Assembly: GCA_965218795.1 (NCBI GenBank)
Contig: OZ244653.1
Coordinates: forward strand, 1,824,001-1,888,000
Direction of reading: 5' to 3'
DNA: 64,000 nt
Source of the DNA: a bacterium
GTDB lineage: Bacteria > UBA8248 > JACPRG01 > G963555815
This document shows positions 24,079 to 57,663 of the stretch, one piece after another. The stretch's first letter is position 1. Each line of letters opens with the position of its first letter. The notes below the pieces were generated by a model. That model saw only the letters and a list, made by a program, of their open reading frames with translations. It did not search any database and was not told the DNA's origin. A program made the translations under genes and the position numbers.

Positions 24079-24290
24079 ATGAGCTTCGGACTCAATCGCG
24101 CAGAACTGATCGGACGCCTGGGCGCCGACGTCACCGTCAACCATCTCACAAGCGGCGGACGCGTGGCCAACCTGTCCATCGCCACCGACGAGGGCTACAT
24201 CGACAAGCAGACCGGAGACCGGGTCGACAAGACCGAGTGGCACCGGGTCGTGACCTTCCAGCCCGGGCTGGTGGACATGTTCGAGAAACA
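24079..24290 (+). pseudogene. ssb: 5' half of a single-stranded DNA-binding protein gene interrupted by integration
   Basis: MSFGLNRAELIGRLGAD...TEWHRVVTFQPGLVDMFEKH, then an abrupt switch to AT-rich non-ssb sequence. Confidence 0.9.
24275..24290 (+). repeat. left attachment-site core
   Basis: ACATGTTCGAGAAACA versus ACATGTTCGAGAAGCA at 57434-57449. Confidence 0.85.
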
Positions 24291-24427
24291 TATTATACCA
24301 AAACAGACAAACGTACGATTGTCTTCGAATGAAACGCCTATACTATATGTATTTCAATGAATTAAAATGGATTCCTGTCTCTGATCTACCGCAATTCGTA
24401 CGTTTGCACACGCACTGGTTTCTTTTA

Positions 24428-24453
24428 TCGTGTTGACAAAAGTGTTGCCAATT
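24428..24453 (+). promoter_or_regulatory. putative integrase arm-type binding sites, left end
   Basis: TCGTGTTGACAAAAGTGTTGCCAATT, similar to TCGTGTTGCAATAGTGTTGACAATT at 57337-57361. Confidence 0.65.
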
Positions 24454-24480
24454 CTGATGCACGGTGTTATAGTCCGGGGC

Positions 24481-25698
24481 ATGAACGAGAACACCGGAAA
24501 ACGCACAGCCAGGGTCAGGACGACACTCACCAGGCGCACCGTCGAGGCGCTCAAGCCCACAGAGAAGTCCTGGATCGCCTGGGACGACAAACTGACGGGC
24601 TTCGGCGTTCGCGTCCAGCCCTCGGGCACCAAGTCGTTCATCGTCAACTACCGCGCGGGCTCCGGCGGCCGCAAGGCGCCCAACAAGCGGGTGGTGATCG
24701 GACGCTACGGCCGCATCGCTCCAGACCGGGCGCGGCGCATGGCCCAGGACCTGCTCGGACGCGTCGCCCGTGGCGAGGATCCTGCCGGAGAACGAGCCGA
24801 TGCCCGCGGCGTCCCCACCCTGGCCCGAGCCTTCAAGGTCTACATGGCGGCTAATCCCAACCGCGCAGCCAATACCGTGAGGCTCTACCAACAGAACCTG
24901 CGGGTCAACCTCTCCGACTGGCTGAAGCGTCCGCTCGACGCCATCACTCGCCAGGACGTCGAGGACCGCTTCAATCTCATTACAGGCAAACACGGCTGGT
25001 CGGCGGCCAACCAGACGCTCTCGATGCTGCGCTCGATCTACCGCAGGCCCTGCGTCGATTTCGAGGGTTTGCGCAATCCAGTCGACCTGTGGCTGGCGGC
25101 CGGGGGGCGCTTCCACAGGAAGCGGAGGCGGCGGATATCGAGCCCGGCGGAGGTGCTGCCCCGCTGGCGCGCGGGCATCGAGGCCGTGGACCTCGATCCG
25201 GAGATTCGCGACATCTTCCTGATCGGCATGTACACCGGCATGCGCCGGGGCGAGATCGTTTCGCTGCGCCGGGAGCAGGTGGACATGGAGCGGCGCATCC
25301 TCAGGGTCGAGGAGACCAAGACCGGGGAGCCGCTGGAGCTTCCGCTCACCCGGCAGCTCGCCGCTATCCTCGAGCAGTGCCTCGCGGGTGGCGAGGACCC
25401 GTGGGTGTTTCCCTCTCCCCGGAGCGGGGCCGGGCACGTGGCGGACCTTGCGCGGTTCTATGGCGAGATTTCAGAAAAAGGCGGAACCCGGTTCTGGTTC
25501 CACGGACTGCGCAACGCCTTCATCACGGTGGCGGAACGCGAACTCATGCTGCCGCGTTCGCTCACGAAGCGGCTGGTGAACCACGCCCGGCCCAGCGACG
25601 TAACCGAGGGCTATGCCGCCGACTGGAGCGTCGAGCAGCTTCGCGAACCTGCCCAACGTATCGCCGACCGCATCGATGAACTGATGAAGGGAACATGA
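24481..25698 (+). CDS. tyrosine integrase with arm-binding domain; likely integrase of the ssb-inserted element
   Basis: WDDKLTGFGVRV; YTGMRRGE, ETKTG, HGLR, LVNH, DVTEGY. Confidence 0.92.
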   Translation: MNENTGKRTARVRTTLTRRTVEALKPTEKSWIAWDDKLTGFGVRVQPSGTKSFIVNYRAGSGGRKAPNKRVVIGRYGRIAPDRARRMAQDLLGRVARGEDPAGERADARGVPTLARAFKVYMAANPNRAANTVRLYQQNLRVNLSDWLKRPLDAITRQDVEDRFNLITGKHGWSAANQTLSMLRSIYRRPCVDFEGLRNPVDLWLAAGGRFHRKRRRRISSPAEVLPRWRAGIEAVDLDPEIRDIFLIGMYTGMRRGEIVSLRREQVDMERRILRVEETKTGEPLELPLTRQLAAILEQCLAGGEDPWVFPSPRSGAGHVADLARFYGEISEKGGTRFWFHGLRNAFITVAERELMLPRSLTKRLVNHARPSDVTEGYAADWSVEQLREPAQRIADRIDELMKGT

Positions 25699-26025
25699 CG
25701 GCGCTTGAATGTTCGCGCGCGGTGCGGCAGATGTGAAATTGCCTAACTCCACGGCGAAGGGGCGCCACGTCGGGTAGTCCTGGAAAACCGTGTCGAGTCA
25801 TGTGCTTCGCTCGCAGTTACGATGCGCTTGCTGGCATTGTCAAGAGGCTGGAATGATTTCGCTATTCCAGCCCGTATCCCAGAAGGATCTGAATGACGGA
25901 TATCCCGACACTTTACCGCGCGCTTAAGTGCGAGTCGGCCATGAGAAACCATCTTCAGGGAATGCTCGATTGGATTCGATATTCATTGCTTTCGATGGAC
26001 CCAATCTGATCAATGTGATGAGGCC

Positions 26026-27198
26026 CTAGTGTACTGTCGCAGAAATTTTTTCACAAAGGCGTTTGATCTTTGCAAGGATGGAATCGGCCGTGGCCGTCCA
26101 CACAAACGGCTGGGCGTTTTCGTTCCAGTGGTCGGTGAATCGGTCAATCCGGCGGATCAGTTCTTTCACTTTGTTGAAGGAGCCCCGTCGAATCGCACGT
26201 TGCGTGATGATGTGAAACCAGATTTCCACTTGGTTGAGCCAGGAAGCATACGTCGGCGTGAAGTGGAGTTGAAACCGTGGGTGTCTTGCCAACCATTGCT
26301 TGATTTTGGCGTGCTTGTGGGTGGCGTAGTTGTCGATCACCAAATGAATGTCCAAATCCGGCGGCACCTGCTCCTCGATGTGGCGTAGAAACTGAAGAAA
26401 TTCCTGATGACGATGGCGGGGCTTACACTGCGCCATGACTTCTCCGGTCTGGATGTCCAGCGCGGCAAACAGAGTCGTTGTGCCATGGCGCCTGTAGTCG
26501 TGGGTGACCCCTTCCACATAGCCCAAGCCCAAGGGCAGCAACGGCTGCGTGCGTTCCAGAGCCTGGACCTGGCTCTTCTCGTCCACGCACAGCACCATGG
26601 CATGCTCGGGCGGATTCAGGTATAACCCCACGATGTCGCGTACTTTCTCCACGAAGAAGGGATCCGTGGAGAGTTTGAAGTGCGCTTGTCGATGGGGCTG
26701 CAACCCGAAGGCACGCCAGATGCGATGCACCGTATCTTTGGATACACCCGTCGCCTGCGCCATGGAACGCACCGTCCACTGGGTCGCCTCGTTGGGACGC
26801 TCTTTGAGTGTCTTGTATACGACCTCGGCCACTTGCTCATCCTCAATCGATCGCGGCGCTCCAGGCCGCAATTCGTCATACAGGCCGATCAGGCCGCGGT
26901 CGAGATACCGCTGGCGCCATTTTCCCACGGTGGCACGATTCACGCCAAGCGCCTCGCCAACCGCACGATTGGGCTTGCCATCGGCGGCCAACAAGACAAT
27001 CTGGGCACGGCGCACCAGCCCATGGGGTAGGCTGCGGGAATGGGCCATAGACTCCAATTGCTGTCGAGCATCATCGCTCAACTCCAAAGCTTTCAGCGGG
27101 CGTCCCCGTGGCATAGGTTCCTCCTTGAAAAAGGGGTGATCAGGAAACCTATGCACAAACATGACTTTTGCCTACTTATTCTTGAGACGAAACACTAG
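26026..27198 (-). mobile_element. IS630-family element with intact transposase (CDS ~26026-27114)
   Basis: [46 protein letters not shown]; CTAG at both ends followed by imperfect IRs. Confidence 0.92.
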
Positions 27199-29249
27199 TC
27201 CATCAAGGCTTTAAAGACGCCATCGGGGCCATCCTTGTAGAATTCGATATTGATCTTGGTCCAAAGCTCGTCGGGCAGGTCATTCAACAGCCGGCGTGCC
27301 GAGACGGGCATCAAAAGCGTCTGTGCCTGTTTGTCTATCGCAAGCTCGGCAACGCGAACGGCGTTAGAAATCGTCTCGATCGATCCGCCAAGGTTCAGTG
27401 CGCCGGCGACAATCGTCCCGCCTCGCGTGTTCCGCCCGAGAAGCGATCCGCATAGAGCGACGATGACCGGCACCCCCAACCCTTCACCGGTCTTGTCGGC
27501 GTCCATGGGGCGCATCTGTATGGTGAATTCATCCTCACGAGGGTTGCGATCGCCGACCAGCTCCTTGGCGCGAGTATAGAGGTTCTGCTCTCCGACCCGT
27601 ACGCTTTCCCGGAACGGAGGTGGGGTTGGTTGATTCAGGATCGTCACACCGCTCCCAGGTCCGCACGTTACTTCGATCCGGTAGAGGCCGGGCCCGGTTT
27701 CCGCTGAGCCGAGACTCACGCCCCAGACTTGGCCGGGGGGTAGCGGGTCGCTGTCGATCGCCTCATCGCTGTGAAGCTCAGGCGTCGCCACAAATTGCTC
27801 GACGCCATCCGGCACGAGGGTGTAGCTGAAATTTGTGTTCCTGAATTCGCTTTTGAAGACGCGTCGCTGTTGCTCCTTGACGCGCCGGCGCGCTTCGAGA
27901 GCCAACCTTATGATCGATTCAAGATCTTCATCCGAGACTGCCATCTCTGGATCAGGGAACAACAGCTTGGTCATACCGCTGACGGTCTTGTTGACTGCTT
28001 CGATGTCGCGTCCATTAAGCGCGCCGCCCAAGTGAACCCGGTTTTGCATTACTGAGACCCGGTTTCCATTGCGTAGCCGGCTCCAGCATTCGCTCAGGAA
28101 ATCGCTCACCAGACCGAAGTGATCCGTTAGATGCTTCTCGGGATTGAGTTTCGGATAATCCCACCCTGGCGCATAAGCATGTAGACGGTCCATGAAGGCT
28201 GTGTCGTCACGCATCTCGGGCGGGAGCGGGCTCAGAAGATGACCTATCCGCTGTTGCTGTTCCACGTCGACATCGAGGTTGCCGACCATCACGAGGCCAC
28301 CCTCAGCACGGATGTTTTCTTTGCCGCGGCTGAATTGCCCGGAGGCCATGTAGCCTTTCATGATGTTCACGCCGTCCTTCTGATCGAAGGATATGCCGGA
28401 AACCTCGTCGAAACAGACGATGTCGTATTGGCATACCAAGCCTCGTTGTCCGTTGGCGTTGTTCACGAACATCTTGGCGACCGTCGCCTTGCCGCCGGAA
28501 ATCAGGTGAGCGTATGGGGAAATCTGCTGGAAGAGGTGGCTTTTTCCAGTGCCGCGAGGCCCGAGCTCAACCAGATTGTAGTTCCGCTCCACAAACGGGA
28601 TCATGCGGAGCAACACGACGCGCTTGGCGCGTTCATCAAAGGCTCCTGGCTCCAACCCGATCGAACGCAGCAGAAAATCGATCCATTCCTGTGTGGTGAA
28701 GGCGCTCCGCGCCTTGACGTAGATGTCAAGGACGTCGGATTTCGACATCTGGATCGGCCGCAAAGCATCGGCCTTGAAGGGGCGACCGCTCTTTTCCTGC
28801 GCAATGATGCCATCGTAGCTCAGGGTCACCTCGGCGTAGAACCCATCGGTGAGCATGCGCTCGTTTTCGCGCACCAGATCGTCGTCTATGCGGACATCGC
28901 GAAGGTTTACGCTTGGTAATTCGGCGATGTAGCAGTCGTTCTTTGCGTCAAGCCGCGCCTTTACGATGTCGATGATCCGGACAGATCCAACTTCTCTTGC
29001 CCGGGCTTTGAAGAGCTCTTCTTCGCCGGTTCGAACCGTCCGGTCCTTCAGCTGTTGCTCGACAATCTTGAGACCTTCGGCGATCTCATCCTCGTCAACG
29101 CTTGCGCAGTAGCGTCCCAGCAAGAACTCGACCACATAGGTAGGAACCGGGTATTGGCGCGCATACCTCCTAACGAGATCCTTTCTCACCAGATACCCGT
29201 CCAAAGCGGATGCGGCGAGCTTGTCCAGATGATCGATTGCCATTGTCAT
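27195..29249 (-). CDS. brxL: BREX Lon-like AAA+ protein
   Basis: VPTYVVEFLLGRYC, ELGPRGTGKSH, CFDEVSG, DTAFMDRLH, Lon-like C-terminus; last gene of the BREX operon. Confidence 0.9.
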   Translation of the reverse strand: MTMAIDHLDKLAASALDGYLVRKDLVRRYARQYPVPTYVVEFLLGRYCASVDEDEIAEGLKIVEQQLKDRTVRTGEEELFKARAREVGSVRIIDIVKARLDAKNDCYIAELPSVNLRDVRIDDDLVRENERMLTDGFYAEVTLSYDGIIAQEKSGRPFKADALRPIQMSKSDVLDIYVKARSAFTTQEWIDFLLRSIGLEPGAFDERAKRVVLLRMIPFVERNYNLVELGPRGTGKSHLFQQISPYAHLISGGKATVAKMFVNNANGQRGLVCQYDIVCFDEVSGISFDQKDGVNIMKGYMASGQFSRGKENIRAEGGLVMVGNLDVDVEQQQRIGHLLSPLPPEMRDDTAFMDRLHAYAPGWDYPKLNPEKHLTDHFGLVSDFLSECWSRLRNGNRVSVMQNRVHLGGALNGRDIEAVNKTVSGMTKLLFPDPEMAVSDEDLESIIRLALEARRRVKEQQRRVFKSEFRNTNFSYTLVPDGVEQFVATPELHSDEAIDSDPLPPGQVWGVSLGSAETGPGLYRIEVTCGPGSGVTILNQPTPPPFRESVRVGEQNLYTRAKELVGDRNPREDEFTIQMRPMDADKTGEGLGVPVIVALCGSLLGRNTRGGTIVAGALNLGGSIETISNAVRVAELAIDKQAQTLLMPVSARRLLNDLPDELWTKINIEFYKDGPDGVFKALMD

Positions 29250-31579
29250 GATTCTTCTCCGACAGTCGTCGGCCTGTAGTCGAGCACCTGTCCTGATTGA
29301 TCGATGAGGACGACCGATGCCGCTGCTCCTTCATGGATGTCGTCGGACACGGCAAGGTTCGCTTTGCCAGCTTCAGTCAGTTCCTTGGAAGTCGCAGCAA
29401 TACTGGATCCGGCCTGTTTCCAATTGAGCCTCAGGTCGACAAAGATGCCCGAGGCATTGGTGTCGACATCGACCCGGCAGCGCATGCCGCGCCAGGAGAT
29501 CGTCGTTATGGTGGCAGAGGCAGCTACCTCGCCACGCTCAACGGTCAAATCGGGGACGACGCATTCCTGTAGGCTTACACCGCCATGGGCGTATTCTGTG
29601 TTGACCCGGAAGGCGCCGATGCCAGGTGGCGAGGCAATGCGGAGCACCGGGTTCCAGTACCAGGGATAGGTCGGCACGGAGGGTGTCGACTCACCTTTGA
29701 CGGCAGCACAGCGTGCCCACTTGGTTTCCACCAGATACGGCGGCAGCTCTATTTTTGGCAGTCCGCCGGGAAGCAACAGCCAGCCGTGGTCTGTGACGAT
29801 CCGGACCTTGCTCCATCCTGCGCTGAGAAGCGCAACAATGCGATCTACGATGGATTCGATCTCGGGTTCGATCTGTTGGACCAGTGCCGCATCGAGCGAA
29901 TGGCCAAGTGAGTCGATCTTGCCTATCTCTGTCCAGGCACCCGCCTCGGAGCCCACGGCCATGAAGGTTTCGCCGTTCTCCAGAACCTCCACGCCCTGGC
30001 GGGCCATAGCCTCGCGAAGGCGGAGGGCATTGGCCGGCTTACCGCTATCGGAAACAAGCGGATAGAAATCCTCGGCGTCCGAGCCGCCAGCACAGGTAGA
30101 ATGGGCTGGTGAAGCCAGCGGCTTCGCCGTTGTGGTAACGGTGGGTATTGGAGCCACACGATGGGAAAGTTGCGTCTTGATGCCACGCGACTCAAGCCTC
30201 TCCTGCAGCGTCATGCCGAGATCGAAGCGCAGGCCGTCCGCGAAAAGGATGCAGGTATCTGCGTCGGATTCTATACCGGTCGCCAGTTTTCCCGGATCAA
30301 CGTCATCCGCTGAGAGGAGCTCCTGAAAACGCCGCGCTGTGTGGTCCAGCCAAGGTTCATAAATCGCGCGCACGACTCTGGTTACGAGATCTTGGTCGGT
30401 CCCGTGTGTAAAGGGCTTCAGGGCTTCGATGGCTGCAAGGTCGCAACGCCAACCTTCGGCGACATAGTGCGAGATCAAGTCTTCGGCGGTAGCGCCCCCA
30501 GGAGGGGTGTACTGTACCCCACGGGCGAGACGGCCTAGAGGGTCTAGGGAAAACGCAAACGGGCTTTTGCCAAGCTGTGCCCAAACCCACCCGCGACGCT
30601 CCTTATGCTCTTCGTCGAGTGCCGTAATCCTTTTACATGCGTCGTTGTGGGCAAGCTGTGCCGCTACTTCGAGTTCCCTCCGGAGATTGTTCTCTTGGTC
30701 TTCGTTGTAACTTGGCTGTCTCGCGAGGTCGCTGAACAGGTCCTTCGGACTGGCGGCCCATAATGCACCGAAGACACCTGGATAGAGTTTCGGTGCGTCG
30801 CAGAACCGTTGCCAAACCTCTTCCCATCTGTCTCCACCCTCTGTGAGCGAGTCAGCAGCCGCGCGGATGCCGTCCGTGTCCGGATCGAAACCAAATTCGC
30901 GGGTGCAGACGTCACGAAAAGTGTCCCAGCGGTCTATGTCCGAGCGTTTCTCGAAAGCTTCCGTGCCACTCATCCATACCAGCAGGTCGCGTACCGGATC
31001 GCCGATAGCCAGGCGATCGAAATCGTCAGCGTCGAGCCGTCGCCCGCGGAGGCCCGCGATCGGTTCCTGTGCCAATAGGGGCAGGGCGCGCAGCATCGAG
31101 TCGCGGGTATGGCTGTCCCGCGCAATATCGAGAGCAAGCGCATCGCCTGAGGTAAGGAACGCCTCGACCGTCCAATCGCGGCCGTTGCGCTGGTGCCAGA
31201 CCCCGCCACGGTACTGCAGCTCGATCAGCGGCTGAAGCATTGGGTCGCAGTCGCCGGCGGCGCGCAGATCCTGGCGTCCAACGTTCGGCAGGTAGAGGAT
31301 CGGAGCCACCCCCTCCTCCGGTGCGACATCGGGCAGGGTCCGGTCAACGATGCACTTGAGCCAGATGACCGGACCCTGTCGTTCATGTGGCGCGTAGGGA
31401 CCAAACAGATATAGTTGAGGCAACGTTTTTTGGAGCGCGGGTAGCAAAGGCTTCCATTGCCCGTCGGCATCGGTCCATAGCAGCGCTATCGGCGCACCCA
31501 CGCCATCTGGCGTTCGCAGGGCTGCGGCGAACGACGCCTTCATGGCGTCGATGAAGGTCTCTGCCTGGGCGGCGTTCAC
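29246..31579 (-). CDS. pglZ: BREX alkaline-phosphatase-family protein PglZ (type B-like)
   Basis: LFADGLRFD, PTVTTTAKP, IDSLGH, VTDHGWLL, YAHGGVSLQE. Confidence 0.92.
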   Translation of the reverse strand: MNAAQAETFIDAMKASFAAALRTPDGVGAPIALLWTDADGQWKPLLPALQKTLPQLYLFGPYAPHERQGPVIWLKCIVDRTLPDVAPEEGVAPILYLPNVGRQDLRAAGDCDPMLQPLIELQYRGGVWHQRNGRDWTVEAFLTSGDALALDIARDSHTRDSMLRALPLLAQEPIAGLRGRRLDADDFDRLAIGDPVRDLLVWMSGTEAFEKRSDIDRWDTFRDVCTREFGFDPDTDGIRAAADSLTEGGDRWEEVWQRFCDAPKLYPGVFGALWAASPKDLFSDLARQPSYNEDQENNLRRELEVAAQLAHNDACKRITALDEEHKERRGWVWAQLGKSPFAFSLDPLGRLARGVQYTPPGGATAEDLISHYVAEGWRCDLAAIEALKPFTHGTDQDLVTRVVRAIYEPWLDHTARRFQELLSADDVDPGKLATGIESDADTCILFADGLRFDLGMTLQERLESRGIKTQLSHRVAPIPTVTTTAKPLASPAHSTCAGGSDAEDFYPLVSDSGKPANALRLREAMARQGVEVLENGETFMAVGSEAGAWTEIGKIDSLGHSLDAALVQQIEPEIESIVDRIVALLSAGWSKVRIVTDHGWLLLPGGLPKIELPPYLVETKWARCAAVKGESTPSVPTYPWYWNPVLRIASPPGIGAFRVNTEYAHGGVSLQECVVPDLTVERGEVAASATITTISWRGMRCRVDVDTNASGIFVDLRLNWKQAGSSIAATSKELTEAGKANLAVSDDIHEGAAASVVLIDQSGQVLDYRPTTVGEES

Positions 31580-34500
31580 GTGTTGCCCTCCACTTCAGTC
31601 GCCCGACGCGCGCGTGCAGCCTGCTTGAAAGAATTTGAATAGTGCAGGTCATTCCAGCGATTGCCGTCGAACTTCTCTCCGCCGGCAAAATCAGACGCCG
31701 CCTCGTCCCAGCCCCAGAACCAGGGATAGTCTTCTTTGTCCCGCATGGGCTCCTTGCCCCGGTCCTTCGTCCATTTGATCTTCGGCGTAGAACGGAGAAT
31801 GCAGGCGCTCTTCGCTCGGGCGCCGAGAGGACGGGAAGTCATGAACGGGCGGATGTTCATTCGGACGCCGTTGTTTATATCGGGGTCCCAGCCGATCGGT
31901 TGGAGATGCAGCGGTTTCCAGCGCACGAAAATGTCGTACGGCGGCTCGCCCTTGAGGATATTTCTCAGTTCTGCCCGCAAATGTTCGGCATGGGCGAGGC
32001 GGGCATCGGCTCCCTCGACACTGGCACTTTGATCTGCGCGCTGGCGGTCGATCCAATCGCCAAGATACGAGTAGATCAGCTTCTCAAGCGTCCGACGGCC
32101 CTCGCCGTTCGGGGCGGCGAGTCGGTGATAGTTCACGAGCGCATGGAACCCGTCACGCCGGCCGTCCCAAATGTGCCAGATGAAGGGGCGTTGCTGGAAC
32201 AACGCGCAGTGCTGTTCGAAGAACCCGTCGTGCAGCCAGTCGTCGAGAGATTTGCCGGAAAAGCCGGTTTCGGCCAGCAAATCAGCGAGTTTGGACGCCG
32301 ACCAATCAGCGCCGAAGGCGTCGGCAAGAATCTCGCTTGCTCGTTCTGCCGCAGGTCTTTCTCCCTTTATTGCGGAAAGACAAGCAATTCCGTCTTCGTC
32401 TATCAGGCGCCCAGAAATTCTTGTCGGCTGCGGTTCACCTAATACCGACCTAATCTGTCGAGGCCATTTGTAACCGAGAAAGGTTGCTATAGAGCTCTGA
32501 AGTGGCGCGATCGAATCATGAATATTGCCACTGTGTATCCATTCAGCAGGGCTAATCGAGCTCGGGTTCGGCAAACCTTTATTGTATTTAACTCGAAAAA
32601 TTGAGTACCATTTTGCGAGTTCAAATGGAATCTTTACAAGACTGGCGTTTGTCACCCCCAATTTCTCGTCTATTTTACGAACGTCTCTTGCATAGTCATC
32701 CGATGAGCAATATGCCCAAATCGGGCCGAGGTATTCCTCATTTTTTGGAACGAGCACAGCAATATTGTTATCGAACCATCGTCCTGCAAATAAGGAACAC
32801 GGGAGTGCTCGCATTTGAGTAACCGCAATGCCGCGTTTCCCGATTGCTTGAGTTCCTCTAATAGCCGCGCCTTCATGTTTCGACAATTCGCCCTTTCCCT
32901 GATCCCATTTCACAACAAATCGGCAGCCGGAATACTCATCAGTCTGTTTAATTGTCGATTGCTGAAATTCCCAACTGTCATCCGCTCCATCTATTTCCCA
33001 AAAAAAGCGTCCGAACCTCTGAAAATCTCCCGTTGATGGTCCTTGCAATGAATCCGCGAATTCACTCAACAGCGCGCTAGCCTCAAATTCACCGAAAACA
33101 AAACGTTGATCGGGAACTTGGGCAATTTTTCCATGGGTTGCTAGTCTCACAGGATTTCGCTTCAGATCTTGACCGCGCTGCTTCTCTTCGATTTCGTCAG
33201 ATTCAAGGCCCGCCGCAACCTGTGACTGGTGACCTCGGAAACGGGTTATAATTGTGAGCGCCCGCAGTGTGTCCCAGCTGGCTTGAGCAGTTGTTCCTGA
33301 GCCGACTTTGGCTACGAAATTGATAGATTGCGAGTTGAGTATCCTGTTTCTGAACTTTTCATAGGTCCCTAGAAAGAGCCAATTGTTTGGGGAGACTACA
33401 GCGTAGGTACCACCGTTCTCAGTTAGTTCATGGCATCGCTTCAAAAATACCGTCGCCAAATCTTGATCAATATCGGGAGCATAAGACATGGAAAAGTCAC
33501 GAATTATCGTGCCTTGCTTTCCACGTACTAGATACGGAACGTTCGTTGCTACAAGCGAGTAGCTTGTCGCCAAGAGCTCGGCAGCCCTAGTCATCCCATG
33601 GGCGGCTACAGCCATTTCGTATTGCACTTCATCGCTTTCCACTCCAGACAGGACCAACGCGAACAGTGGTTCCAGCTTCTCGAAACCTTCACGGAAGATT
33701 TCCGCACCTTCGCGACGTGGATCGATCAGGCTGCCAAGCCAAGGTGCCTTGGCGAAGAGATCGTAGAGCGCCTCGAGCCCGTTCTTTGCACGCTCTTCCA
33801 GCCCATGGGTAAGCAGGTTGTTTTCCACGCCGAAAAGGTCGCGCCTCGCGTCCGGATCGACCGCCATGACCGCCTTGTCCGCGAGCTTCAGCCATTCCGC
33901 TTTGGTCACGCCGATTGCGAGACCTGAGCAGGCTAGGTTCAACTGCGGCAATGTGCGATAGCCGACCTTTCGCCAAGCCGCGAAGGCCAGGTTGAAAGCC
34001 GCAATCTGCGTGCAGCGCGGGTCGATTTCCAACCCGAACAAATTGTCGCGAAGCACGGCTTCGAAGGCTTCCGTCTCGCTTAGTCCTTCCTCGGCTTTGC
34101 GGAAGGCGGCGAGGATCGGCAGCGCGAAGACCAGGAAATGCCCCGAGCCCATGCAGGGATCTAGCACAGTGAGGTCTTTCGCAGCCGTCGGCCAGCCCTT
34201 GAACGTGCCGGCGGCCGGGCGCCACGGGCCTTGATCGCCGTCCTCAGCCTTCTCGCGGATGAAGCGCAGGTAGGTCCACTCGACATCGCCGACCTTGCAC
34301 GTCGCCCGCAGCTCTTCCTCGCTCTGCGCCGAAGTTGCGATATCGGGATTTCCAGCCAGAACTTTGCCAGCCCACCAAGCGCCAAGGGTGTTGTGGAGCA
34401 GGAAGAGGACCATGTAGTCCTCGGTGAAGAGCTGAGTGACCGCCGGCAGCTCGTCTGCCCCGATTTTGGTCTCGGATCGGTTGACCTCTTCTTTCTTCTC

Positions 34501-49658: not shown

Positions 49659-49784
49659 GGCGCCGTCTCCTTCGGATGGGTGATCGGGAATGGCGAGGAC
49701 GCCCTCTCCCGGGACATCCGTCCGCCGCCCCGCTCACGGCCCGGCTCGGTCTCTTGGCGGTGCACCGCGCGCCAAGGAGAACGG

Positions 49785-50230
49785 CTCACGCGATAGCGGT
49801 CCAGGGTGCGGGGCGACAGGCCCAGGAAGGCCGCCACCTCGCACGTGCTCATGTAGCTCTCGTCTTGCATCACTTCCTCCCTTTGCCTTGTGGGATCGAT
49901 GGGAACCCCCGGGGTGCCGTCCTTGATCGCAGCCCTCACGGCCTCGCGTTCGGCCGGGCTCGAGTTGGCCGCCATCCAGGTGCGTACGCAGTCGAACGTA
50001 TGCAGCGTCGGGGATGATCCGCAGCGCAGCCGCACCACGAAGGATGGATCTCCTACCGGTTCCTCGTCCATGAATGCCAGCACCTTGTCGGCAGTGGCCA
50101 CCCGCACCGCCGCGCCTCTCGCGAGGCGGCCCACGAAATTCGGATTCCCGAGCGCCAGTTCGCCGAAGCGGGTGCGCGTCATGCCGACCGCGGCGATGAA
50201 CGCCTCGATGGCGTTCTCCTGAGTCTGCCT
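49785..50230 (-). pseudogene. decayed Cro-like HTH and excisionase/AlpA-like HTH genes
   Basis: MTRTRFGELALGNPNFVGRLARG...TADKVLAFM and YMSTCEVAAFLGLSPRTLDRYRV (truncated). Confidence 0.6.
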
Positions 50231-50429
50231 GCTGTCCGAAGTAGCGGATTGGGTGTCTGTCGCGGTGTTTATGGGGCAAGAATAAAAAAAGAACGACTAT
50301 CGTTGACAATAGGACTGTATAGGGCACAAGTCATTCGCGACGACACAACCGCGAGGACGTGCGATGGAACGCGACCCGGTACGATAGAAAAATACCAACC
50401 TGCTTTGGTACCGCGGCCTCACCATGCGC

Positions 50430-51030
50430 GAGGCCTCGCTCTCCATCTGACGCAACGCCTCCTAAATGCACCAGTTCCTGGAACGGGGTATTCCGAAGGC
50501 GCTGGGATTCAGGGCTCGGAGAAGCTCGCCGAGTTGCTCGGCTGCGAGGCCGAGGAGCTGCGCCCGGAGACGATCCCCAAGCGCAAGCCCTGGGCGCGGA
50601 AGAAACGCCCGAAGTCCCCGGAGGCTCCGGCCCAGCTGTCAGCGGTGGTTCCCGAGATGGAGATCGAGGCCGCGCCGGGGTGAGGGTATTCAATGAGGAG
50701 TTCGTTCAGGAGAAAGCGCGCTGGCGGATCCCCGAAGGCATGATCCGCCACCAGGGCGACGCCGTCCCTGAGAACCTGCGCATCCTCCGGGTACGGGGCA
50801 ACTCGATGGAGCCCGAGATGCGCGAGGGCGATCGGCTGCTGGTTGACACCGGAAGGTGCAGGCTGACCACAGGAGAGATGTTCGTGCTCTGGGACAACAA
50901 CGGTCTCGTGGCCAAGCGGGTTGAGGCTCTAAGGAGCGAGCCAAGGCAGCTCAAGCGGCTCTCCGCCAACCCGGACTACGAGTCCTATACCTGCCTCGCC
51001 GAGGATGGCATATCGTCGGCAAGGTGGTCT
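50430..51030 (+). pseudogene. CI/LexA-like repressor with S24 peptidase domain, frameshifted
   Basis: HQFLERGIPKAL, LAELLGC, LRVRGNSMEPEMREGDRLLVD, VAKRV, LSANPDY spread over different frames; divergent from the Cro-like remnant. Confidence 0.75.
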
Positions 51031-51711
51031 CTGGGCTCTGCGGAGGATGTGATCGTCACACTGGATCAGAGAGGATGGGCAGGATTTCGGACAAGAATGG
51101 GAATATGACTGGTTCCGGACGAAGCCCCAGACATGAAGTGACGGAGTCCCCGACGGATACCCCTGGACGATGGCGCCTCGAAAGCCGATCTCACGGCACA
51201 TCAATCGAAAATGGCGGCGCTCGGCAACGATCTGGCCTTTGAGATCGATTGTATTGAGGACTAGATCGGTGTCCGGGGAGCGGTTCACGTGAATCAGCCG
51301 GACCAAAGGTTTGGTGGGCGTGGGAATCCGAATCTTTCTGGTCAGGCCGTGTCACGGATAGGCGACAACAGCGACTGCAATATAATCAAGGCTGGGGAAC
51401 AGATCCCGCTTCCGTTGGCTGGCAGCATGCCGGCCAAGGCAGGCATCTCGACATCCCGAGATATGATCGATTCTCGTACTTACACAGTGGCCGATGAGAA
51501 GGATCACTCCTTCGGGAAAGTTCGATCCCATGTGACCTTGGAAATTGAGGCGCTAAGCGCCTCAGCGGAGAGAGCGCAGAGCGAGACGATGATGAAAGCG
51601 TCGATTGAACGCCATCGGAAGGACTAACCTGATGCTGTTTCCGTGCGCCTTTGGAGGGAGTCAACCGTGGTATATTCCGCCGGCTTGCTCCAATACCCAG
51701 CCAGGATCCGA

Positions 51712-54700
51712 ATGGCCATCCTGAGAAACGATATCGAAAGGGCTCTCGATGAACTCACCTCTCAAGAGGAGGGGATGCGTTTTCAGGGGCTGGCGGTAGT
51801 ACTCGGCAAGAAGCGCTGGCCCGAACTCATCGCGCGCCAGCGCAAGAAGGATTTCGGCCTTGATGCTTACGCGCCTGCAAGCCTGACGCCGGAGAAATTC
51901 GGCAAGGGACTCGCCGCCTCGATCACACCAACGCTGCAGAAAGTTTCTCACGACGTAACGGAGGCCAAGAAAAAATTTCCTGATCTAAAAACGCTTCTCT
52001 TCGTGACGCCTGCCAAAGTGGGCAACCTGAAACGAAAACAATGGGAAGAGGCAATTCAGAAGGACCACGATCTCGAACTTCATATCATTGAGCGTGAGGA
52101 AATCATCACGCTGATGCTGATGCCGGAGAACGCATCGCTTTGCGCCAGCTTCCTCTACCTCGAGATCCATGCCGAACCGGAGATCGCAGACCTCATTGAA
52201 AGAACGAGGCGTGCGGCCGCTGTTGTCACGCGGACCTGGGCTGAGAAAACGAAAGGACATCCGCTCATCGATCTCACAGCGGTGCGGCTTGACCCGAATG
52301 GTGCGGAGTCTGCCGACGTGCTGTCGCTTGAGCAGATCGACCGGGCGCTGTCGCAGAGCGGCCGCATCGTTCTCGAAGGGCCCGCCGGGCGTGGAAAAAC
52401 AACGACGCTGATACAGCTCGCGCAGCGTACACGCACCGCCGGCATACCGTTCATAGTCGAACTTTCGGCGTGGACGACGTCGCGCCGGAACATTCTCGAA
52501 TACATTGCCGGCATGCCTGCGTTCCAGGCCGAACGTCTCGCACCAGCCGACCTCGCGTGGGTGCAGCAGACGGAACCATTCCTGTTGTTGTTGAACGGCT
52601 GGAATGAAATTACGGAGTCGAGTTCTGCGCAAGCACACGATGCACTCCGGGAACTCGAGCGGAATTTTCCGAGCGCGGGCATCATCGTCGTTACCCGCAC
52701 GCACCATTTGGCCCCACCGCTGCCCGGCGCATTGCGGCTCCGGTTGTTGCGCCTTCGACGCGTGCAGCGTGCAGCTTACCTGGCAGCCCGCCTTGGCGCG
52801 AAAAGCGTCGAACTCCGTGCCCGCATTGATGCCGACCCGTCGCTCGATGGCCTGACACGCACGCCGTTCATCCTCTCGGAAGTCGCTTCTCTGTTTGAAG
52901 CCGGCGCCGAAATTCCCTCCATGAAGTTCGGCGTTCTCGCCCAAGTTCTACGTCTGCAAGAACAACGAGACGAACACAGAAACTCGCTACAAGCCGCTCC
53001 GATCTTCGGTCAGCAAACGGACTACCTGAAAGCTCTCGCAACTGAGATGACACGCCGCGGTGCAGTGGCAATGTCCGAGGCTGATGCGCGCGCTGTAGTT
53101 GCCACCGTCGCACGAGATCTTTTGGACCGTGGGCAGATCGAGCGGGCGGGAGCGCCGGCGGTCCTCGCGAGCCTCACGGCGCACCACCTTCTTGAGCGCG
53201 TTGAGTATCCGGAAACTGTGTTTCAATTCGAGCATCAGCAGTTTCAGGAGTATTACGCAGCGCTCGACGTCCGCGCGCGGCTTCTCGACCTGCGGGACGA
53301 TGACCACGACACGACCGAGCGCTTCACTGACGACTACGTGAACTATCCGGCATGGGCCGAATCTCTGCGCATGATCGCTGAGACTCTTGCCGAACAGACC
53401 GGCAATGAAGGAACCGACAGGCGAAACATCTGCGCTAGCGTGAAGCTGGTGAATATGGCGCTGGTGGTCGACTTGGTATTCGCCGGTGAGCTTGCGCAGG
53501 TTTGCGGCGCGGCCGTCTGGAATGAAGTTCGCGCCGTGGTGGGCGAGACCTTCCGCGCCGCGTACGCGATCCCCGACGGGAACTATCAGCAGTATGCCAT
53601 CGCCGCTATGCTTACGACTGGCGCGGACGACTTCCGCGACATCATCCTGCCGCTTTTGTCGGGACAAGATCAGCAAACGCGGCTAAGCACGTACCGGATC
53701 TGGCCTGACATCAAGCTCTCGTCTCTTGGATCGAACTGGCGCGAGCAGGTGCGCGGCTGGAGCGATGAGGCGCGAGCGGATTTCGTCTCCGAACTGCTTC
53801 ATCATCGTGTCGATGGCGAGATAGCATCCTTCGCTGTGGTGGACAACAGCGTCGCGGTGAAGAAGGCGGCGGTCTCCGGCCTCATGTGGACCGGGTCTGA
53901 CGACGCGCTGACCCGCGTCCTTGAGTCCATGGATGCGCAGACTTTCGAGGATGTTGCGAGCGAGAATGCCGATCGTATGCCCCTGGCCCTCAGGCCCAAG
54001 GCTATCGCAGCGATGCGGAAGCTTATCGCCAGTACGGCCGACTATTCTGTCCGCCTGCGCACTGCGCTTCATCTGATCGAGCTCGGCGAGCCAGGCCTGG
54101 ACCGCATCGTCAAGGACGCGATGGCGGCATTGCCCGGCGGTGACATGCGCAAACTGAATTCGCACCTCATCCGAACGGCGCTTGAGTATCTGCGTGATAC
54201 CGATCCCGCTTGGACCAGCGAGTGGGTGGTAATCCGGATTGCCGAAGGCATCCTTTACGGGCATGAGGAATGGTTGCCCTTCGCCACCGTTATTCCCGAT
54301 GAATTCGTGGAGACCTACCTGCACCGCCTCGAGACCGAAGACCTCAACAACTCGCGCTTTGAGGGGATGATTGCGGTTATCGCTACGCAGGCGGATGCAA
54401 AGCTTGCGGCGCGGGTGTTTGCGAAGCTGCGCGAGTTGCGGTGCAAGTTGGATGCGGAACCCGACAAGCGGCACGAATTCGAGTGGCAGGTGATGAGGCA
54501 GCTGGAGGCTGTGTTTCGTGGTCTTCCCGGCGACGTCGTCGCGGCCGGCATCCTCTCGTCCGTCATGAGCGGCGACCCCCTCGACATCAAAGTCGCGGCG
54601 AACCTTCTTAGTAGAGTCGCCAGATCCGATCTGGAACCGTTGCGCGTCGCCGACGACGACCTAAAGGGACGCCTCCGCGCATACCTGAAGAGCAGCGTCA

Positions 54701-56220
54701 ATCTTGTGCTCCGCCAGGACGACTTCAACGGCGAGGAGAAAGCCAATCTGGCGTCGTCGATTGCACAGGTCGGAACAGCCGAAGACATGGCGGACTTGGT
54801 GACGCTCATCCGCGCCGACATCGAGAGGATACGCCGAGGCCGGGCCGCACGAGCGGCTGGCGACCGTGGACCTCTCGGCAATGACAGCAGCATGAGCTAC
54901 GCTGGATGGCACATCTCCGCCGTCATGCACCTCGATCCGACCGGAGCCGATCAGGTCCTCATTGACCTGCTTCCCGAGCCGGAATACTCCTCCGACGCTG
55001 CGGCAGCGATGGCGCGAGACTTCGTGTCAAAGCCGGAGCATTCCTTCGATCGGGGGTTCCGGTACGACTTGATATGGGACGCGCGCGAATGCCGCACTCC
55101 CCCGCTTGACGACGACCAGCGGCGCACACGGTTCGTCGCTGCACTCAATGCCGAGATCGATCGCCTGCGAGAGCAGAATCAAGACGGGAAACCCGCCGCC
55201 GGTCTTAAAAAGCTTGCACAGGTACTTGCCGCAATTGACGGCAGCAGTTCGGCGGCAGCGGTGCTCGACGTAATTGCCATGCCTAGTGAATGGGACCAAG
55301 GCACCAGTCTCGACGCCGCTGAGCGCTTATTGATGGCGGGTGTCGTATTGCCCGCGACCACCGCGTTCGCTCTGGTCGATTCCATCCTCAAGCGGACAGA
55401 GAAGTGGATGCAAAATTCAGACAGATACCTTCTGCGCCGCTTACTCGCTCTCTGCCCCTTCGTTGACGACCCTGTGGCAGGGATCGCCAAGATACGCGAG
55501 GTGATCGGCAAGCGCCGGCTCGGGGCATACGAACTGCGCGAGGTCATCACCGCTCTCGGCGAGAGCCGATCGGATGACGCCATCGACCTTCTGTACAAGC
55601 TCACCTCCGATGCGCAGATGTTCGAGCAATGCGAGGACAATTTCATCAACGCCATCGCCGCGCTCGATACGCCGCGCGCACGCGAACTGCTCCTGGGTTT
55701 TGTCGATCCAGACATACGCGCCATCGCACTGTCACGCCGTCCTGACCACGAGGACTTGCTGGTCGCGCGGCTCACGGAACTAGCCCAGCGCAGGCCGGCG
55801 GTGGCAGCGCGGTTGCGGGAATTGTGCGAACGCGAACTGCCAGAAATCAATCGGCACGTCCTCTCGAAAGTCATGGGCTGGTTCGGAACGCCCGAGGCCC
55901 TGACCGCCAATCTGAACCTGATCGATGACGCTAAGCCCTCGTCGGTTCCGCAAGGCGTCTGGGACCAACTCGAAAGCGCTTTCGTCGAGCGACAACCTTA
56001 CGGGCAAAATCCCAACGTCTTTACGGTACACGCACGAGCCTCAAACGAACTGCGCGCCCGGCTGCTCAGAATGGCGCTTGAGGACCGTAAACGTCGAAAA
56101 TCCGCCTTCATTCTTCTAGGACAAATCGAGGTATGGCGCCTTGAGCATGGCAGGCCGACGGACGAACCGCGTCACCCCGATCTCGCATCCGGCCAGTATT
56201 GGCCGCCCAAGGAGTTCTGA
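51712..56220 (+). CDS. large NACHT/STAND NTPase with N-terminal restriction-endonuclease-like domain (Avs-like defence candidate)
   Basis: N-terminal FQGLA...KDFGLDA...LLFVTP; Walker A GPAGRGKTT; LLLLNGWNE; VVTR; RTPFILS; FEHQQFQEYYAA; long helical C-terminus. Confidence 0.8.
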   Translation: MAILRNDIERALDELTSQEEGMRFQGLAVVLGKKRWPELIARQRKKDFGLDAYAPASLTPEKFGKGLAASITPTLQKVSHDVTEAKKKFPDLKTLLFVTPAKVGNLKRKQWEEAIQKDHDLELHIIEREEIITLMLMPENASLCASFLYLEIHAEPEIADLIERTRRAAAVVTRTWAEKTKGHPLIDLTAVRLDPNGAESADVLSLEQIDRALSQSGRIVLEGPAGRGKTTTLIQLAQRTRTAGIPFIVELSAWTTSRRNILEYIAGMPAFQAERLAPADLAWVQQTEPFLLLLNGWNEITESSSAQAHDALRELERNFPSAGIIVVTRTHHLAPPLPGALRLRLLRLRRVQRAAYLAARLGAKSVELRARIDADPSLDGLTRTPFILSEVASLFEAGAEIPSMKFGVLAQVLRLQEQRDEHRNSLQAAPIFGQQTDYLKALATEMTRRGAVAMSEADARAVVATVARDLLDRGQIERAGAPAVLASLTAHHLLERVEYPETVFQFEHQQFQEYYAALDVRARLLDLRDDDHDTTERFTDDYVNYPAWAESLRMIAETLAEQTGNEGTDRRNICASVKLVNMALVVDLVFAGELAQVCGAAVWNEVRAVVGETFRAAYAIPDGNYQQYAIAAMLTTGADDFRDIILPLLSGQDQQTRLSTYRIWPDIKLSSLGSNWREQVRGWSDEARADFVSELLHHRVDGEIASFAVVDNSVAVKKAAVSGLMWTGSDDALTRVLESMDAQTFEDVASENADRMPLALRPKAIAAMRKLIASTADYSVRLRTALHLIELGEPGLDRIVKDAMAALPGGDMRKLNSHLIRTALEYLRDTDPAWTSEWVVIRIAEGILYGHEEWLPFATVIPDEFVETYLHRLETEDLNNSRFEGMIAVIATQADAKLAARVFAKLRELRCKLDAEPDKRHEFEWQVMRQLEAVFRGLPGDVVAAGILSSVMSGDPLDIKVAANLLSRVARSDLEPLRVADDDLKGRLRAYLKSSVNLVLRQDDFNGEEKANLASSIAQVGTAEDMADLVTLIRADIERIRRGRAARAAGDRGPLGNDSSMSYAGWHISAVMHLDPTGADQVLIDLLPEPEYSSDAAAAMARDFVSKPEHSFDRGFRYDLIWDARECRTPPLDDDQRRTRFVAALNAEIDRLREQNQDGKPAAGLKKLAQVLAAIDGSSSAAAVLDVIAMPSEWDQGTSLDAAERLLMAGVVLPATTAFALVDSILKRTEKWMQNSDRYLLRRLLALCPFVDDPVAGIAKIREVIGKRRLGAYELREVITALGESRSDDAIDLLYKLTSDAQMFEQCEDNFINAIAALDTPRARELLLGFVDPDIRAIALSRRPDHEDLLVARLTELAQRRPAVAARLRELCERELPEINRHVLSKVMGWFGTPEALTANLNLIDDAKPSSVPQGVWDQLESAFVERQPYGQNPNVFTVHARASNELRARLLRMALEDRKRRKSAFILLGQIEVWRLEHGRPTDEPRHPDLASGQYWPPKEF

Positions 56221-56353
56221 CTTTCCTCCTTGGCCCAAAGGGGCAGTTACCCCCCTGTCGTCCATATCGCAGTGCGCAACTTCCTCGTGTTCCGACATCG
56301 CGATCATGTTCACTTATTGCTTGGTGGACACCAAACCGGGGGCCATTCATGGT

Positions 56354-56985
56354 TGACCTGCCCCCTTTAACCGGAGCCATTTGCTGAGTTAGTGTATTTC
56401 GGCATTTGGGTCATTGAGGAGGGGGATCAGCTGCCCAGGAAACGTTTTACGGTCGAGCAGATCATCAATCATCTTCGGGAGGCGGAAGTGCTGCTGGCAC
56501 AGGGCCAGCGGGTTGGCGAGCTCTGTCGTCGGATAGGCATCACGGAGCAGACGTTTTACCGGTGGCGCCGCGAGTATGGCGGCCTGAAGCTGGACCAGGC
56601 GAAGCGTCTGAAGGTGCTAGAGCAGGAGAATGCCCGGCTCAAGCGTGCGGTTGCCGATCTGACGCTGGACAAGTTGATCCTGAAGGAAGCTGTTGAGGGA
56701 AACTGGTAAGCCCCGAGCGTCGCCGACGCTGTGTGTCCTACGTGATGGAACGCTACCCTGTTTCCGAACGTCGGGCCTGCATGGTCCTGGGCCAGTCGCG
56801 CACGAGCCAGCGCTACAGTCCGATCATCGTGGAGGAGGCCGGTCCGTTGGCGGCGGCGATCATCCGCTTGGCTGGTCAGTATGGCCGTTATGGCTATCGC
56901 CGGGTGACGGCGTTGCTTCGAGCAGAAGGTTGGCGCGTGAACCACAAGCGGGTGGAACGGTTCTGGCGGCGGGAGGGGCCCCAGC
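56354..56985 (+). mobile_element. IS3-family (IS407 group) element truncated in orfB
   Basis: left end TGACCTGCCCCC; orfA 56431-56709 (FYRWRREYGG, LEQENARLK); GGGAAAC frameshift window; orfB YGRYGYRRV...VNHKRVER.WRREG, then homology stops. Confidence 0.85.
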
Positions 56986-57336
56986 GAGGCATGGCTCGGC
57001 GCCGGCTGTCATGGGATATTGATGGTTCGTGAGGACGCATGGCGGATGAGCCGGGACGGGACGATCCCGGGTAGGTTCGAGAGGGTTTCCGGAGCGTTCC
57101 CATCCCGCCCGGCTCTGGCTGGCGGCCTTCGTGGCCGATGGAAATCATCGAGAGATGGACACCGGCCTTGACGACCATGCCGGCTAGCGCAGGGTGGTCA
57201 ACTCATCAAGGGAAAATATGGGAAACCGTATCTATGACCAGGTGGGTTGCGGAGGTTGAACCCTTCACCGAAACGGAACATCATTGTCGCTCTCACCCGG
57301 GCGCAGGCAAACGAAGTCGTGTACATGATCGATGCG

Positions 57337-57361
57337 TCGTGTTGCAATAGTGTTGACAATT
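57337..57361 (+). promoter_or_regulatory. putative integrase arm-type binding sites, right end
   Basis: TCGTGTTGCAATAGTGTTGACAATT, matching 24428-24453. Confidence 0.65.
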
Positions 57362-57433
57362 ATTATCTAGAAAATCTATTTCTAAATAAATCCATTATAT
57401 TCAATAGTTTATGTTGAATATAAAGTATTGAAT

Positions 57434-57449
57434 ACATGTTCGAGAAGCA
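57434..57449 (+). repeat. right attachment-site core
   Basis: ACATGTTCGAGAAGCA at the AT-rich to GC-rich switch. Confidence 0.85.
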
Positions 57450-57663
57450 CGCGACGAAGGGCCGGCTGGTCTATGTGGCGGGCAAGCTGCAGACCCGTCG
57501 CTGGAAGAAGGACGACGAGGACTCCGACCGGTTCTCGACCGAGATCCTGCTGGTTCCGGGCGGGCGCGTGCAGTTCCTCGACAAGCCCAACGGCAACGGC
57601 GCGCCGGTCGCGGGGGCGGAGACGCCGTCCGCCGAAGCGCCCATGGACGACATCCCGTTCTGA
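57436..57663 (+). pseudogene. ssb: 3' half of the interrupted ssb
   Basis: MFEKHATKGRLVYVAGKLQTRRW...DDIPF continues exactly where 24079-24290 stops. Confidence 0.9.

Follow-up and report, generated by a model that had tools for sequence, protein, structure and literature searches.

Several kinds of mobile element are known to integrate into other mobile elements. Firmicutes harbour integrative and mobilizable elements (IMEs), among them IMESp2907, Tn6104 and IME_Sco1050_traG, which according to the excerpted text of PMC5704250 use serine integrases and insert at fixed internal sites in the Maff2-like, SNF2 and traG genes of Tn5252-superfamily integrative and conjugative elements (ICEs). Site-specific accretion of ICESt1 and ICESt3 is cited in that same text, the excerpt of a second paper has Tn1806 integrating into ICEs of the ICESa2603 family (PMC12942858), and the available portion of a 2026 preprint states that some hitchers integrate in ICEs. 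Here we describe a related arrangement in a 64,000-bp stretch of bacterial DNA (the window, positions 1,824,001–1,888,000 of a single-contig 5.17-Mb genome; positions given below are those of the window unless the genome is stated), in which an accessory ssb gene is split by a DNA element, E1, that encodes a tyrosine integrase, IntE, and carries a bacteriophage exclusion (BREX) system.

A split ssb gene and its two junctions

The 5′ half of ssb begins with the ATG at 24079, reads ...GLVDMFEKH and then enters AT-rich DNA unrelated to ssb (IIPKQT...), and the 3′ half closes at 57663 with DDIPF, the canonical SSB tail, the interruption falling within codons 66–70 (D-M-F-E-K). Both junctions contain the 13-mer ACATGTTCGAGAA, which occurs only twice in the window when both strands are searched, once at each junction. 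The DNA between the ssb halves amounts to 33,159 bp, with E1 itself spanning 24288–57433, and removal in silico of the interval together with one copy of the repeat gives an open 141-amino-acid SSB. The ends of the element and the adjoining parts of ssb are laid out as follows.

24079–24290, + strand: 5′ half of the accessory (ICE-type) ssb, residues 1–70, after which the frame continues into element DNA
24275–24287, + strand: attL core ACATGTTCGAGAA, copy 1 of the direct repeat
24288–24480, + strand: P′ arm, AT-rich, with two same-strand arm-type repeats (GTGTTGAC, 24430–24437; GTGTTGCC, 24442–24449)
24481–25698, + strand: IntE, an intact tyrosine integrase of 405 amino acids with an N-terminal arm-binding domain and a catalytic domain
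57200–57433, + strand: P arm, with two same-strand arm-type repeats (GTGTTGCA, 57339–57346; GTGTTGAC, 57350–57357) followed by an AT-rich spacer
57434–57446, + strand: attR core ACATGTTCGAGAA, copy 2 of the direct repeat
57436–57663, + strand: 3′ half of the target ssb (MFEKH...DDIPF), resuming at MFEKHATKG

IntE matches the Pfam families Arm-DNA-bind_3 (1.8e-16) and Phage_integrase (2.5e-13) and contains the motifs GMRRGE, TKTG, HGLR, NHA and EGY, which we take to hold the catalytic residues. The arm-type repeats lie ~143–160 bp inside the left end and 79–95 bp inside the right end. As a paired motif (GTGTTG-N5/6-GTGTTG) they are found at two places in the window, 24430–24447 and 57339–57355, both on the + strand, and at none in 100 shuffles. 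Across the genome the paired motif occurs 11 times, versus 0 for a reversed control, and six of these occurrences are the left and right ends of E1, the left and right ends of a second element (E2), the left end of a third (E3) and one orphan right end. In the sequence of the two E1 junctions CGAGA is flanked by an inverted ATGTT/AACAT pair, which is seen again in sister elements.

A first-pass annotation made from the letters of this DNA had reported the split of ssb at ...VDMFEKH/MFEKHATKG with a shared junction sequence, inverted ATGTT/AACAT arms around a CGAGA spacer, GTGTTG-like pairs about 150 bp inside the left end and about 90 bp inside the right end, and an intact integrase beside the left end. 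The split is real and every checkable detail of it proved correct; the inverted arms, the positions of the pairs and the intact integrase were verified as well. We put the probability that E1 is a site-specific insertion into ssb at roughly 0.85.

Recurrence of the site and sites of related integrases

Searching the same genome by tblastn with the two ssb halves returned 10 N-halves and 10 C-halves, which resolve into 7 largely intact copies, 3 attL-type junctions (E1, E2 and E3) and 3 attR-type junctions (E1, E2 and the orphan). The three attL junctions all have the ssb frame stop after the same core and enter the same arm, and in the attR junctions the core is preceded by an AT-rich arm that bears a GTGTTG pair. 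The genome also encodes paralogues of IntE, two at 92% identity and one at 75%, and those at 92% have ssb N-halves, interrupted at the codon used by E1, at a distance of 0.2 kb. E2 is 39,280 bp long; apart from the integrase end, the right arm and an inverted ssb module it shares nothing with E1. As for E3 and the orphan, the E3 attL (~229,198 in the genome, − strand), whose core is mutated to ACATGTTCAAGAA, and the orphan attR (~4,386,885, + strand), whose arm has diverged, lie on opposite strands ~1 Mb apart across the contig start, a layout that suggests a large inversion or an exchange between ssb modules.

To extend the comparison to other bacteria we searched one genome per prokaryote species, which gave 371 relatives of IntE, the best 80 of which were analysed. 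At five of these loci (L009–L013) the integrase is preceded, ~190 bp upstream, by the end of an ssb truncated at residue 71, at a sixth (L015) a truncated ssb and the integrase are separated by an insertion sequence (IS), and at L018, whose integrase is 80% identical to IntE, the break has the same position in a more diverged ssb. Genomes of four other species (G001–G004) hold complete elements of 30,986, 43,027, 31,935 and 31,604 bp, each with attL, integrase, inverted intact ssb and attR; in a fifth genome searched whole (G005) no matching C-half was found on the contig concerned. Two further attL junctions are present on metagenome contigs (L131 and L132). Position and orientation of the arm repeats are kept in 7 left and 7 right arms, the AT-rich spacers having diverged, and E1-type arms form no part of the DNA that flanks ssb in uninterrupted copies. 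The integrase open reading frame (ORF) is intact in all copies examined. Duplication of the core at both junctions is found in 5 elements besides E1; in G004 both cores share a private variant, ACATGTTTGAGAA, and in G003 the two cores differ at position 2 only. These two pairs of cores, together with L018, place the strand exchange within ATGTTCGAGAA.

In the mechanism we propose, IntE, a tyrosine integrase in the style of P4 and lambda, would have placed E1 into the accessory ssb of a resident ICE-like island. Its N-terminal domain would bind the two GTGTTG repeats in each arm of attP, four in all, and its catalytic domain would pair the core of the element with that of ssb and exchange strands within the short core segment named above. 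Such an exchange would leave ssb in two pieces, with a copy of the core at each end of the element.

The ssb that is targeted is an accessory gene, present in multiple copies and distinct from the housekeeping one. The housekeeping ssb lies at 2,314,844–2,315,152 of the genome and scores 129 bits against Pfam SSB, versus ~81 bits for the accessory type. Four intact ssb copies with a perfect core are present in the same genome, and a perfect core was found in 7 of the 27 non-element ssb copies examined in G001–G005. The accessory module, which includes a double-zinc-ribbon gene, a Toprim/DUF7146 primase-like gene and a YAcAr gene in addition to ssb, recurs with a tandem pair of integrases (IntA/IntB), a TrwB-type coupling protein and a TrwC-type relaxase, and a TrbI/VirB10-like gene is present in three islands of the family; the family copies at ~476–541 kb and 2661–2702 kb of the genome have TrwB, TrwC and a TrbI-like gene. 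This company of genes makes the target family ICE-like. VirB4 (PF03135) was not found anywhere in the genome. The earlier proposal that E1 targets the ssb of a mobile-element family is thus borne out by the repeated junctions, the empty perfect sites and the association of the ssb module with IntA/IntB and with TrwB, TrwC and TrbI-like genes.

We built a quick maximum-likelihood tree of the integrases with IQ-TREE, leaving out L020, L035 and L039 (translations shorter than 350 amino acids). In the clade closest to IntE (99% support in the SH-like approximate likelihood ratio test, SH-aLRT), 9 of the 10 rows are at the ssb site, the remaining row (L014) being at a look-alike site; within this clade, homologs of the integrase mostly neighbour an ssb split at the codons named in the first-pass annotation. 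Truncated genes of the module stand directly upstream of the integrase at 25 of the 80 loci. Fourteen of them are ssb, broken at about residue 71 in 7, 86 in 2, 34 in 2 and 46 in 1, with reverse-oriented fragments in 2, and the other 11 are YAcAr, broken at about residue 182 in 8, 353 in 2 and 300 in 1. The break positions track the integrase clades, and the clade at YAcAr residue 182 has 100% support and 8 of its 9 rows at that site. The loci in question (L062, L067, L069, L077–L080 and L087; at about position 5820 of each locus, 368 in L067) share a conserved junction, ...AACATGCTCGACGC/TTTT, and come from genomes deposited as Binatia, Thermodesulfobacteriota and Bryobacterales. Another four loci (L068, L072, L075 and L083) form one clade with the core CGCCAACCTCCC, found in ssb (residues ~28–34 or ~46) and in YAcAr (residue ~300), which on comparison of the sequences appears to be a single core specificity that reaches two genes of the same module.

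The sites of L014 (86% identity) and of several relatives at 79–80% identity are not in ssb and match the core in its right part only. Of the 36 loci that belong neither to the 25 above nor to the 19 described below, several are at look-alike sites of this kind. This raises the alternative that ssb is incidental, the integrase needing only a short core such as TTCGAGAA and landing anywhere it occurs. Such an integrase would account for the relatives at 79–86% identity whose non-ssb sites end ...GAA/ACAT, and a 21-mer spanning attL does occur by chance in an unrelated ORF on 2 metagenome contigs. We nevertheless consider this explanation improbable, because the closest clade is almost entirely at one ssb codon, the distant L018 is at the same position of a diverged ssb, and other clades are at fixed positions of their own (ssb ~34, ~46 and ~86; YAcAr ~182, ~300 and ~353).

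Nineteen further loci share upstream DNA, and 11 of the 12 that were aligned contain a ~45-nt stretch that is the reverse complement of the 3′ half of a tRNA with a CAT anticodon loop (tRNA-Met-like). A tRNA is the classical target of P4/lambda-type integrases, and this sister clade adjoins a tRNA-Met-like 3′ fragment. A tRNA as the target itself was rejected: the window contains no tRNA, and none of the 80 loci has a complete tRNA in the 1 kb upstream of its integrase. Across the groups the integrase gene keeps a GTGTTG pair on its upstream side, sometimes as GGGTTG or TCGTTG.

The spare module, the host island and the cargo of E1

Comparison of the window with itself revealed that 44249–49771, inside E1, is an inverted paralogue of both flanks of the element, which the first-pass annotation had missed. 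Gene content and order of this internal module match those of the interrupted host module.

44249–49771, − strand: backbone module of E1, inverted relative to the target
44521–45738, − strand (module): YAcAr/SLOG
45781–~47200, − strand (module): Toprim/DUF7146 primase-like gene
47288–47713, − strand (module): intact ssb, 141 amino acids (Pfam SSB 9.6e-23)
48020–48394, − strand (module): p124, an ORF of 124 amino acids
48477–49298, − strand (module): double-zinc-ribbon protein
49571–50182: ORF of 203 amino acids, overlapping the end of the module
Flank 21697–22998 versus inverted internal 48478–49771: 86% identity
Flank 23739–24290 versus inverted internal 47502–48026: 84% identity
Flank 57434–58651 versus inverted internal 46300–47517: 95.6% identity
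Flank 59120–60984 versus inverted internal 44249–46123: 93.6% identity

Each complete element has its own intact, inverted ssb–primase–YAcAr module homologous to the target, and the ssb is inverted in 6 of 6 complete elements. Given this orientation, homologous recombination between the spare and the host module would flip DNA and leave the cargo in place. In the proposed mechanism the spare ssb would replace the broken one. The core within the internal ssb carries variants in E1, E2, G001, G002 and G003, and in G004 no internal copy was found within 3 mismatches. A variant core is also present in 20 of the 27 non-element ssb copies of G001–G005, with 12 of those altered at the same right-hand positions; since such variants are common in other ssb copies too, immunity of the element to insertion of a sibling by way of a recoded spare core is no more than a possibility.

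The inverted copies bring in a second alternative, namely that homologous recombination or inversion between ssb–primase–YAcAr copies produced the split without an integrase. The 3.3-kb inverted repeats, at 94–96% identity, flank 47518–57433, the change in identity coincides exactly with the core, and an attL and an attR of the same genome stand on opposite strands ~1 Mb apart, all of which would fit recombination of this kind. It leaves unexplained, however, both the 13-bp direct repeat with its AT-rich arms and matching arm repeats and the return of this junction in five further elements whose cargo is unrelated, and we regard it as very improbable.

The island that received E1 is represented in the window by the following features.

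12028–14504, + strand: tandem pair IntA (12028–13299) and IntB (13296–14504), the likely left end of the host island
21655–23420, + strand: host backbone upstream of ssb, with an ORF of 182 amino acids, a double-zinc-ribbon gene (22178–22999) and an ORF of 137 amino acids
57750–60984, + strand: host backbone downstream of ssb, with a Toprim/DUF7146-like gene and YAcAr (59494–60711), 94–96% identical to the internal copy

IntA/IntB, cargo and the ssb module are all that the host island of the window contains, and it looks like a remnant and not a working conjugative element. Of the host Toprim/DUF7146 gene (57750–59200), 285 of 473 residues (1–285) align in one piece and the frames shift, and ~300 bp of the region have no counterpart in the internal copy; the host copy of this gene seems to be disrupted. 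Pairs of the IntA/IntB type occur at ~6 places in the genome, in addition to fragments. The paired motif GTGTTGAAATAGTGTTG adjoins IntA-type integrase fragments at 238951, 1641858, 2829034 and 3968643 of the genome, and IntA elements, whose integrase has ~30% identity to IntE and looks unrelated, may use similar arm repeats. Directly after the host YAcAr, at 61166–63536, lies a second, more distant integrase pair, which may mark another element stacked there. To the left of IntA/IntB a 68-bp direct repeat (88%; 10162–10229 and 11465–11532) surrounds a luciferase-like monooxygenase gene and could be what is left of an att site of the host island. Between IntA/IntB and the ssb module the window encodes an ankyrin-repeat protein of 891 amino acids (17358–20033), its gene having a long internal array with a period of ~102 bp, and an adjoining GDSL-lipase autotransporter (15262–17187); another ankyrin/SH3 protein is among the cargo of G002.

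The cargo of E1 comprises the following.

26026–27198, − strand: IS630-family IS (DDE_3 transposase 26026–27162)
27195–39958, − strand: type 1 BREX operon, by PADLOC and Pfam
27195–29249, − strand: brxL (Pfam BrxL 4.6e-130)
29246–31579, − strand: pglZ (PADLOC PglZ 3e-276)
31576–35070, − strand: pglX (PglX-type methylase domains, Pfam)
35083–38532, − strand: brxC (PADLOC BrxC E=0)
38529–39092, − strand: brxB (Pfam BrxB 1.7e-08)
39095–39958, − strand: brxA (PADLOC BrxA 6.4e-96)
40285–44417: small ORFs (~4 kb)
50359–51108, + strand: S24 (LexA/CI-like) peptidase-type regulator
51643–56220, + strand: STAND-type protein of 1525 amino acids with an NCAB2 C-terminal domain, HEAT repeats and a weak NACHT match
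56392–57032, + strand: IS3-type transposase remnant (HTH_Tnp_1 orfA and a truncated second frame)

Profile matches confirmed that the predicted type 1 BREX system is complete, with six genes in the usual order; the system itself is ordinary by comparison with known type 1 BREX, and what is unusual is its carrier. G+C content is 52–62% across the BREX genes, compared with 63–73% in the flanks. The protein of 1525 amino acids matches NCAB2 (2.5e-25) and HEAT_2 (3.2e-07) in Pfam, and NACHT at 20.8 bits, below the cut-off of 26.7; it matched no PADLOC family and received no NCBIfam name, the only hit there being a sub-threshold partial match to FlhF at 21 bits. Its predicted domain architecture is NACHT-like. 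Of the earlier reading of the cargo as BREX plus an Avs-like gene, BREX is confirmed and the Avs-like label, with no PADLOC match and NACHT below the cut-off, is not. Among the small ORFs, that at 41751–42284 has a marginal match to Cytochrom_C_2 (cytochrome c′; 28.6 bits, cut-off 26.5), and the remaining ones tested at 40285–44417 gave no domain match. Compared with its sister elements, E1 alone has the BREX system, the S24 regulator and the NACHT-like gene. The cargo of E2 includes a giant ORF of ~4,500 amino acids with Calx-beta and He_PIG Ig-like domains (L098:6130 to L099:5096).

TrwB and TrwC are both present in E2 and G004, and TrwC in G001–G003, with Cas3 also in G003; none of the three TrbI-like genes of the genome lies inside E2. 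Carrying TrwC, and in two cases TrwB, the sisters look like mobilizable elements that, as far as their gene content tells, derive from that same ICE backbone, their integrase module being a different one placed at the opposite end. What the E1 family has in common is the integrase, two arms and the inverted ICE backbone module, joined to variable cargo, and the shared backbone module indicates that the family derives from the same ICE family as its targets. With cargo so variable, and with E1 devoid of TrwB and TrwC, "defence element" fits E1 and not the family, and we read E1 as a reduced, defence-carrying member. The suggestion that E1 parasitises other mobile elements thus holds in so far as the ssb of a mobile element is targeted, and fails in so far as it implies a foreign parasite, the invader being kin of its target and bringing a module of its own. 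If IntE is active, E1 could excise and integrate, and its transfer would occur only inside a conjugative element or with help in trans. The S24 regulator may tie excision to DNA damage, in the manner of CI-like repressors of other integrative elements.

Added to the non-ssb sites of L014 and its like, several observations weigh against reading E1 as an insertion made by IntE within a resident ICE-like island. E1 has no match to TrwB or TrwC (E ≤ 1e-3), no remnant of either and neither domain among its large ORFs scanned, no search for an origin of transfer having been made; its IS630 copy, which has nine 100% identical copies and a tenth at 99.8% elsewhere in the genome, and its IS3 remnant fit decay; and no excisionase-like (Xis/AlpA-like) Pfam domain was found in 9 small ORFs of E1. 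The host island has no TrwB, TrwC or TrbI within reach. Identity of the flanks to the internal copy is unequal, 84–86% on the left versus 94–96% on the right, probably, as the alignments suggest, through recombination after the insertion. Contigs of 4 sequencing runs from 1 study revealed neither an excised circle nor a restored ssb for 42000–61500, being too fragmented: they are short and broken at repeats, with no usable joint or loose end at 57433/57434 among the matches listed. An attP-type junction motif gave 0 matches in metagenome contigs and 0 in the genome itself (1 mismatch allowed). As a positive control, the attL 21-mer gave 4 matches in the metagenome contigs, 2 at real junctions and 2 by chance (L133 and L134, in an unrelated ORF), and the blank for attP has little weight because only 2 true attL junctions are in that collection.

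Many of these points would suit a third explanation, in which the locus is a fossil composite: a single ancestral insertion into ssb, immobile by now, the copies of which have spread with the ICE or vertically. E1 is without relaxase and coupling protein and has IS elements, the E3 attL core is mutated to ACATGTTCAAGAA with the partner end misplaced, no excised form was found in the fragmentary contigs or by the low-power attP motif search, and the flanks have diverged about as much as the elements. Set against this, the cargo between the conserved ends is wholly different among E1, E2 and G001–G004, L009–L013 differ in the genes upstream of the broken ssb, a private core variant stands at both ends of G004, the integrase ORFs are intact, and a single genome contains both occupied sites and perfect sites left empty. 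We think a fossil composite unlikely, though a serious contender.

Beyond the insertion of E1 itself, we tentatively propose a wider picture, one that is possible and on balance doubtful. A single tyrosine-integrase family in uncultured, largely marine, host-associated bacteria, with several phylum labels, may have specialised on the DNA-processing module of one ICE family, with clades at ssb ~34, ~46, ~71 and ~86 and at YAcAr ~182, ~300 and ~353. The invaders would be kin of their targets and would carry an inverted spare, so that recombination leads to inversion and not to loss, with a recoded core (GAG to GAA, AAG to CGG) that would confer immunity to siblings. ICE backbones would then serve as landing pads for nested defence islands.

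Comparison with known nested elements

If these readings hold, the locus extends the lifestyle of hunting conjugative elements beyond Firmicutes and serine integrases, to tyrosine integrases in uncultured marine bacteria, and the carried spare would represent a solution to the cost of breaking the target gene. A split accessory ssb or YAcAr beside an integrase of this family would mark the exact borders of a cargo island (here BREX and the STAND-type gene), a rule of use for delimiting defence islands in metagenome-assembled genomes. Sister clades at different codons of one small module would also make a natural data set on the evolution of integrase core specificity.

In the literature searched, supplements excluded, we found no description of ssb as an integration target, and none of the E1 family among sponge-symbiont elements with BREX. 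The first-pass annotation had recognised no described family with this target. That statement stands for ssb; the strategy of hitting conserved ICE genes was already known, because Firmicutes IMEs integrate into conserved genes of ICEs (PMC5704250, excerpted text). The present case departs from the known strategy in its class of recombinase, its bacteria, its target gene, the kinship of invader and target, and the spare copy.

Like P4/lambda-type integrases, IntE has the arm-binding and catalytic domain pair and is associated with a site made of a short core and long arms, with arm-type repeats on both sides. The usual target of those integrases is the 3′ end of a tRNA or tmRNA, whereas the clade of IntE uses an internal codon block of an accessory ssb, and an excisionase was not found among the 9 small ORFs examined. 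The resemblance to ICE accretion and nesting, as set out in the excerpts of PMC5704250 and PMC12942858, is that related integrative elements stack by site-specific recombination into composite islands; accretion in those accounts uses a resident att site or another locus of the ICE, whereas in the present case a protein-coding gene of the backbone contains the site.

The Firmicutes IMEs, as portrayed in the excerpt of PMC5704250, share with the E1 family that they are not self-transmissible, that attB is internal to a conserved gene of a conjugative element, that this gene is disrupted, and that one ICE backbone offers several sites. They differ in having a serine integrase and Gram-positive hosts, where the present family has a tyrosine integrase with arm sites and a target family of the TrwC type. 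The target here is ssb, or YAcAr in sister clades, and the hosts are uncultured bacteria whose labels as deposited are Gram-negative and span several phyla. A spare of the disrupted gene is not described for the Firmicutes elements in that excerpt, whereas the E1 family has an inverted intact copy and shares the backbone of its target.

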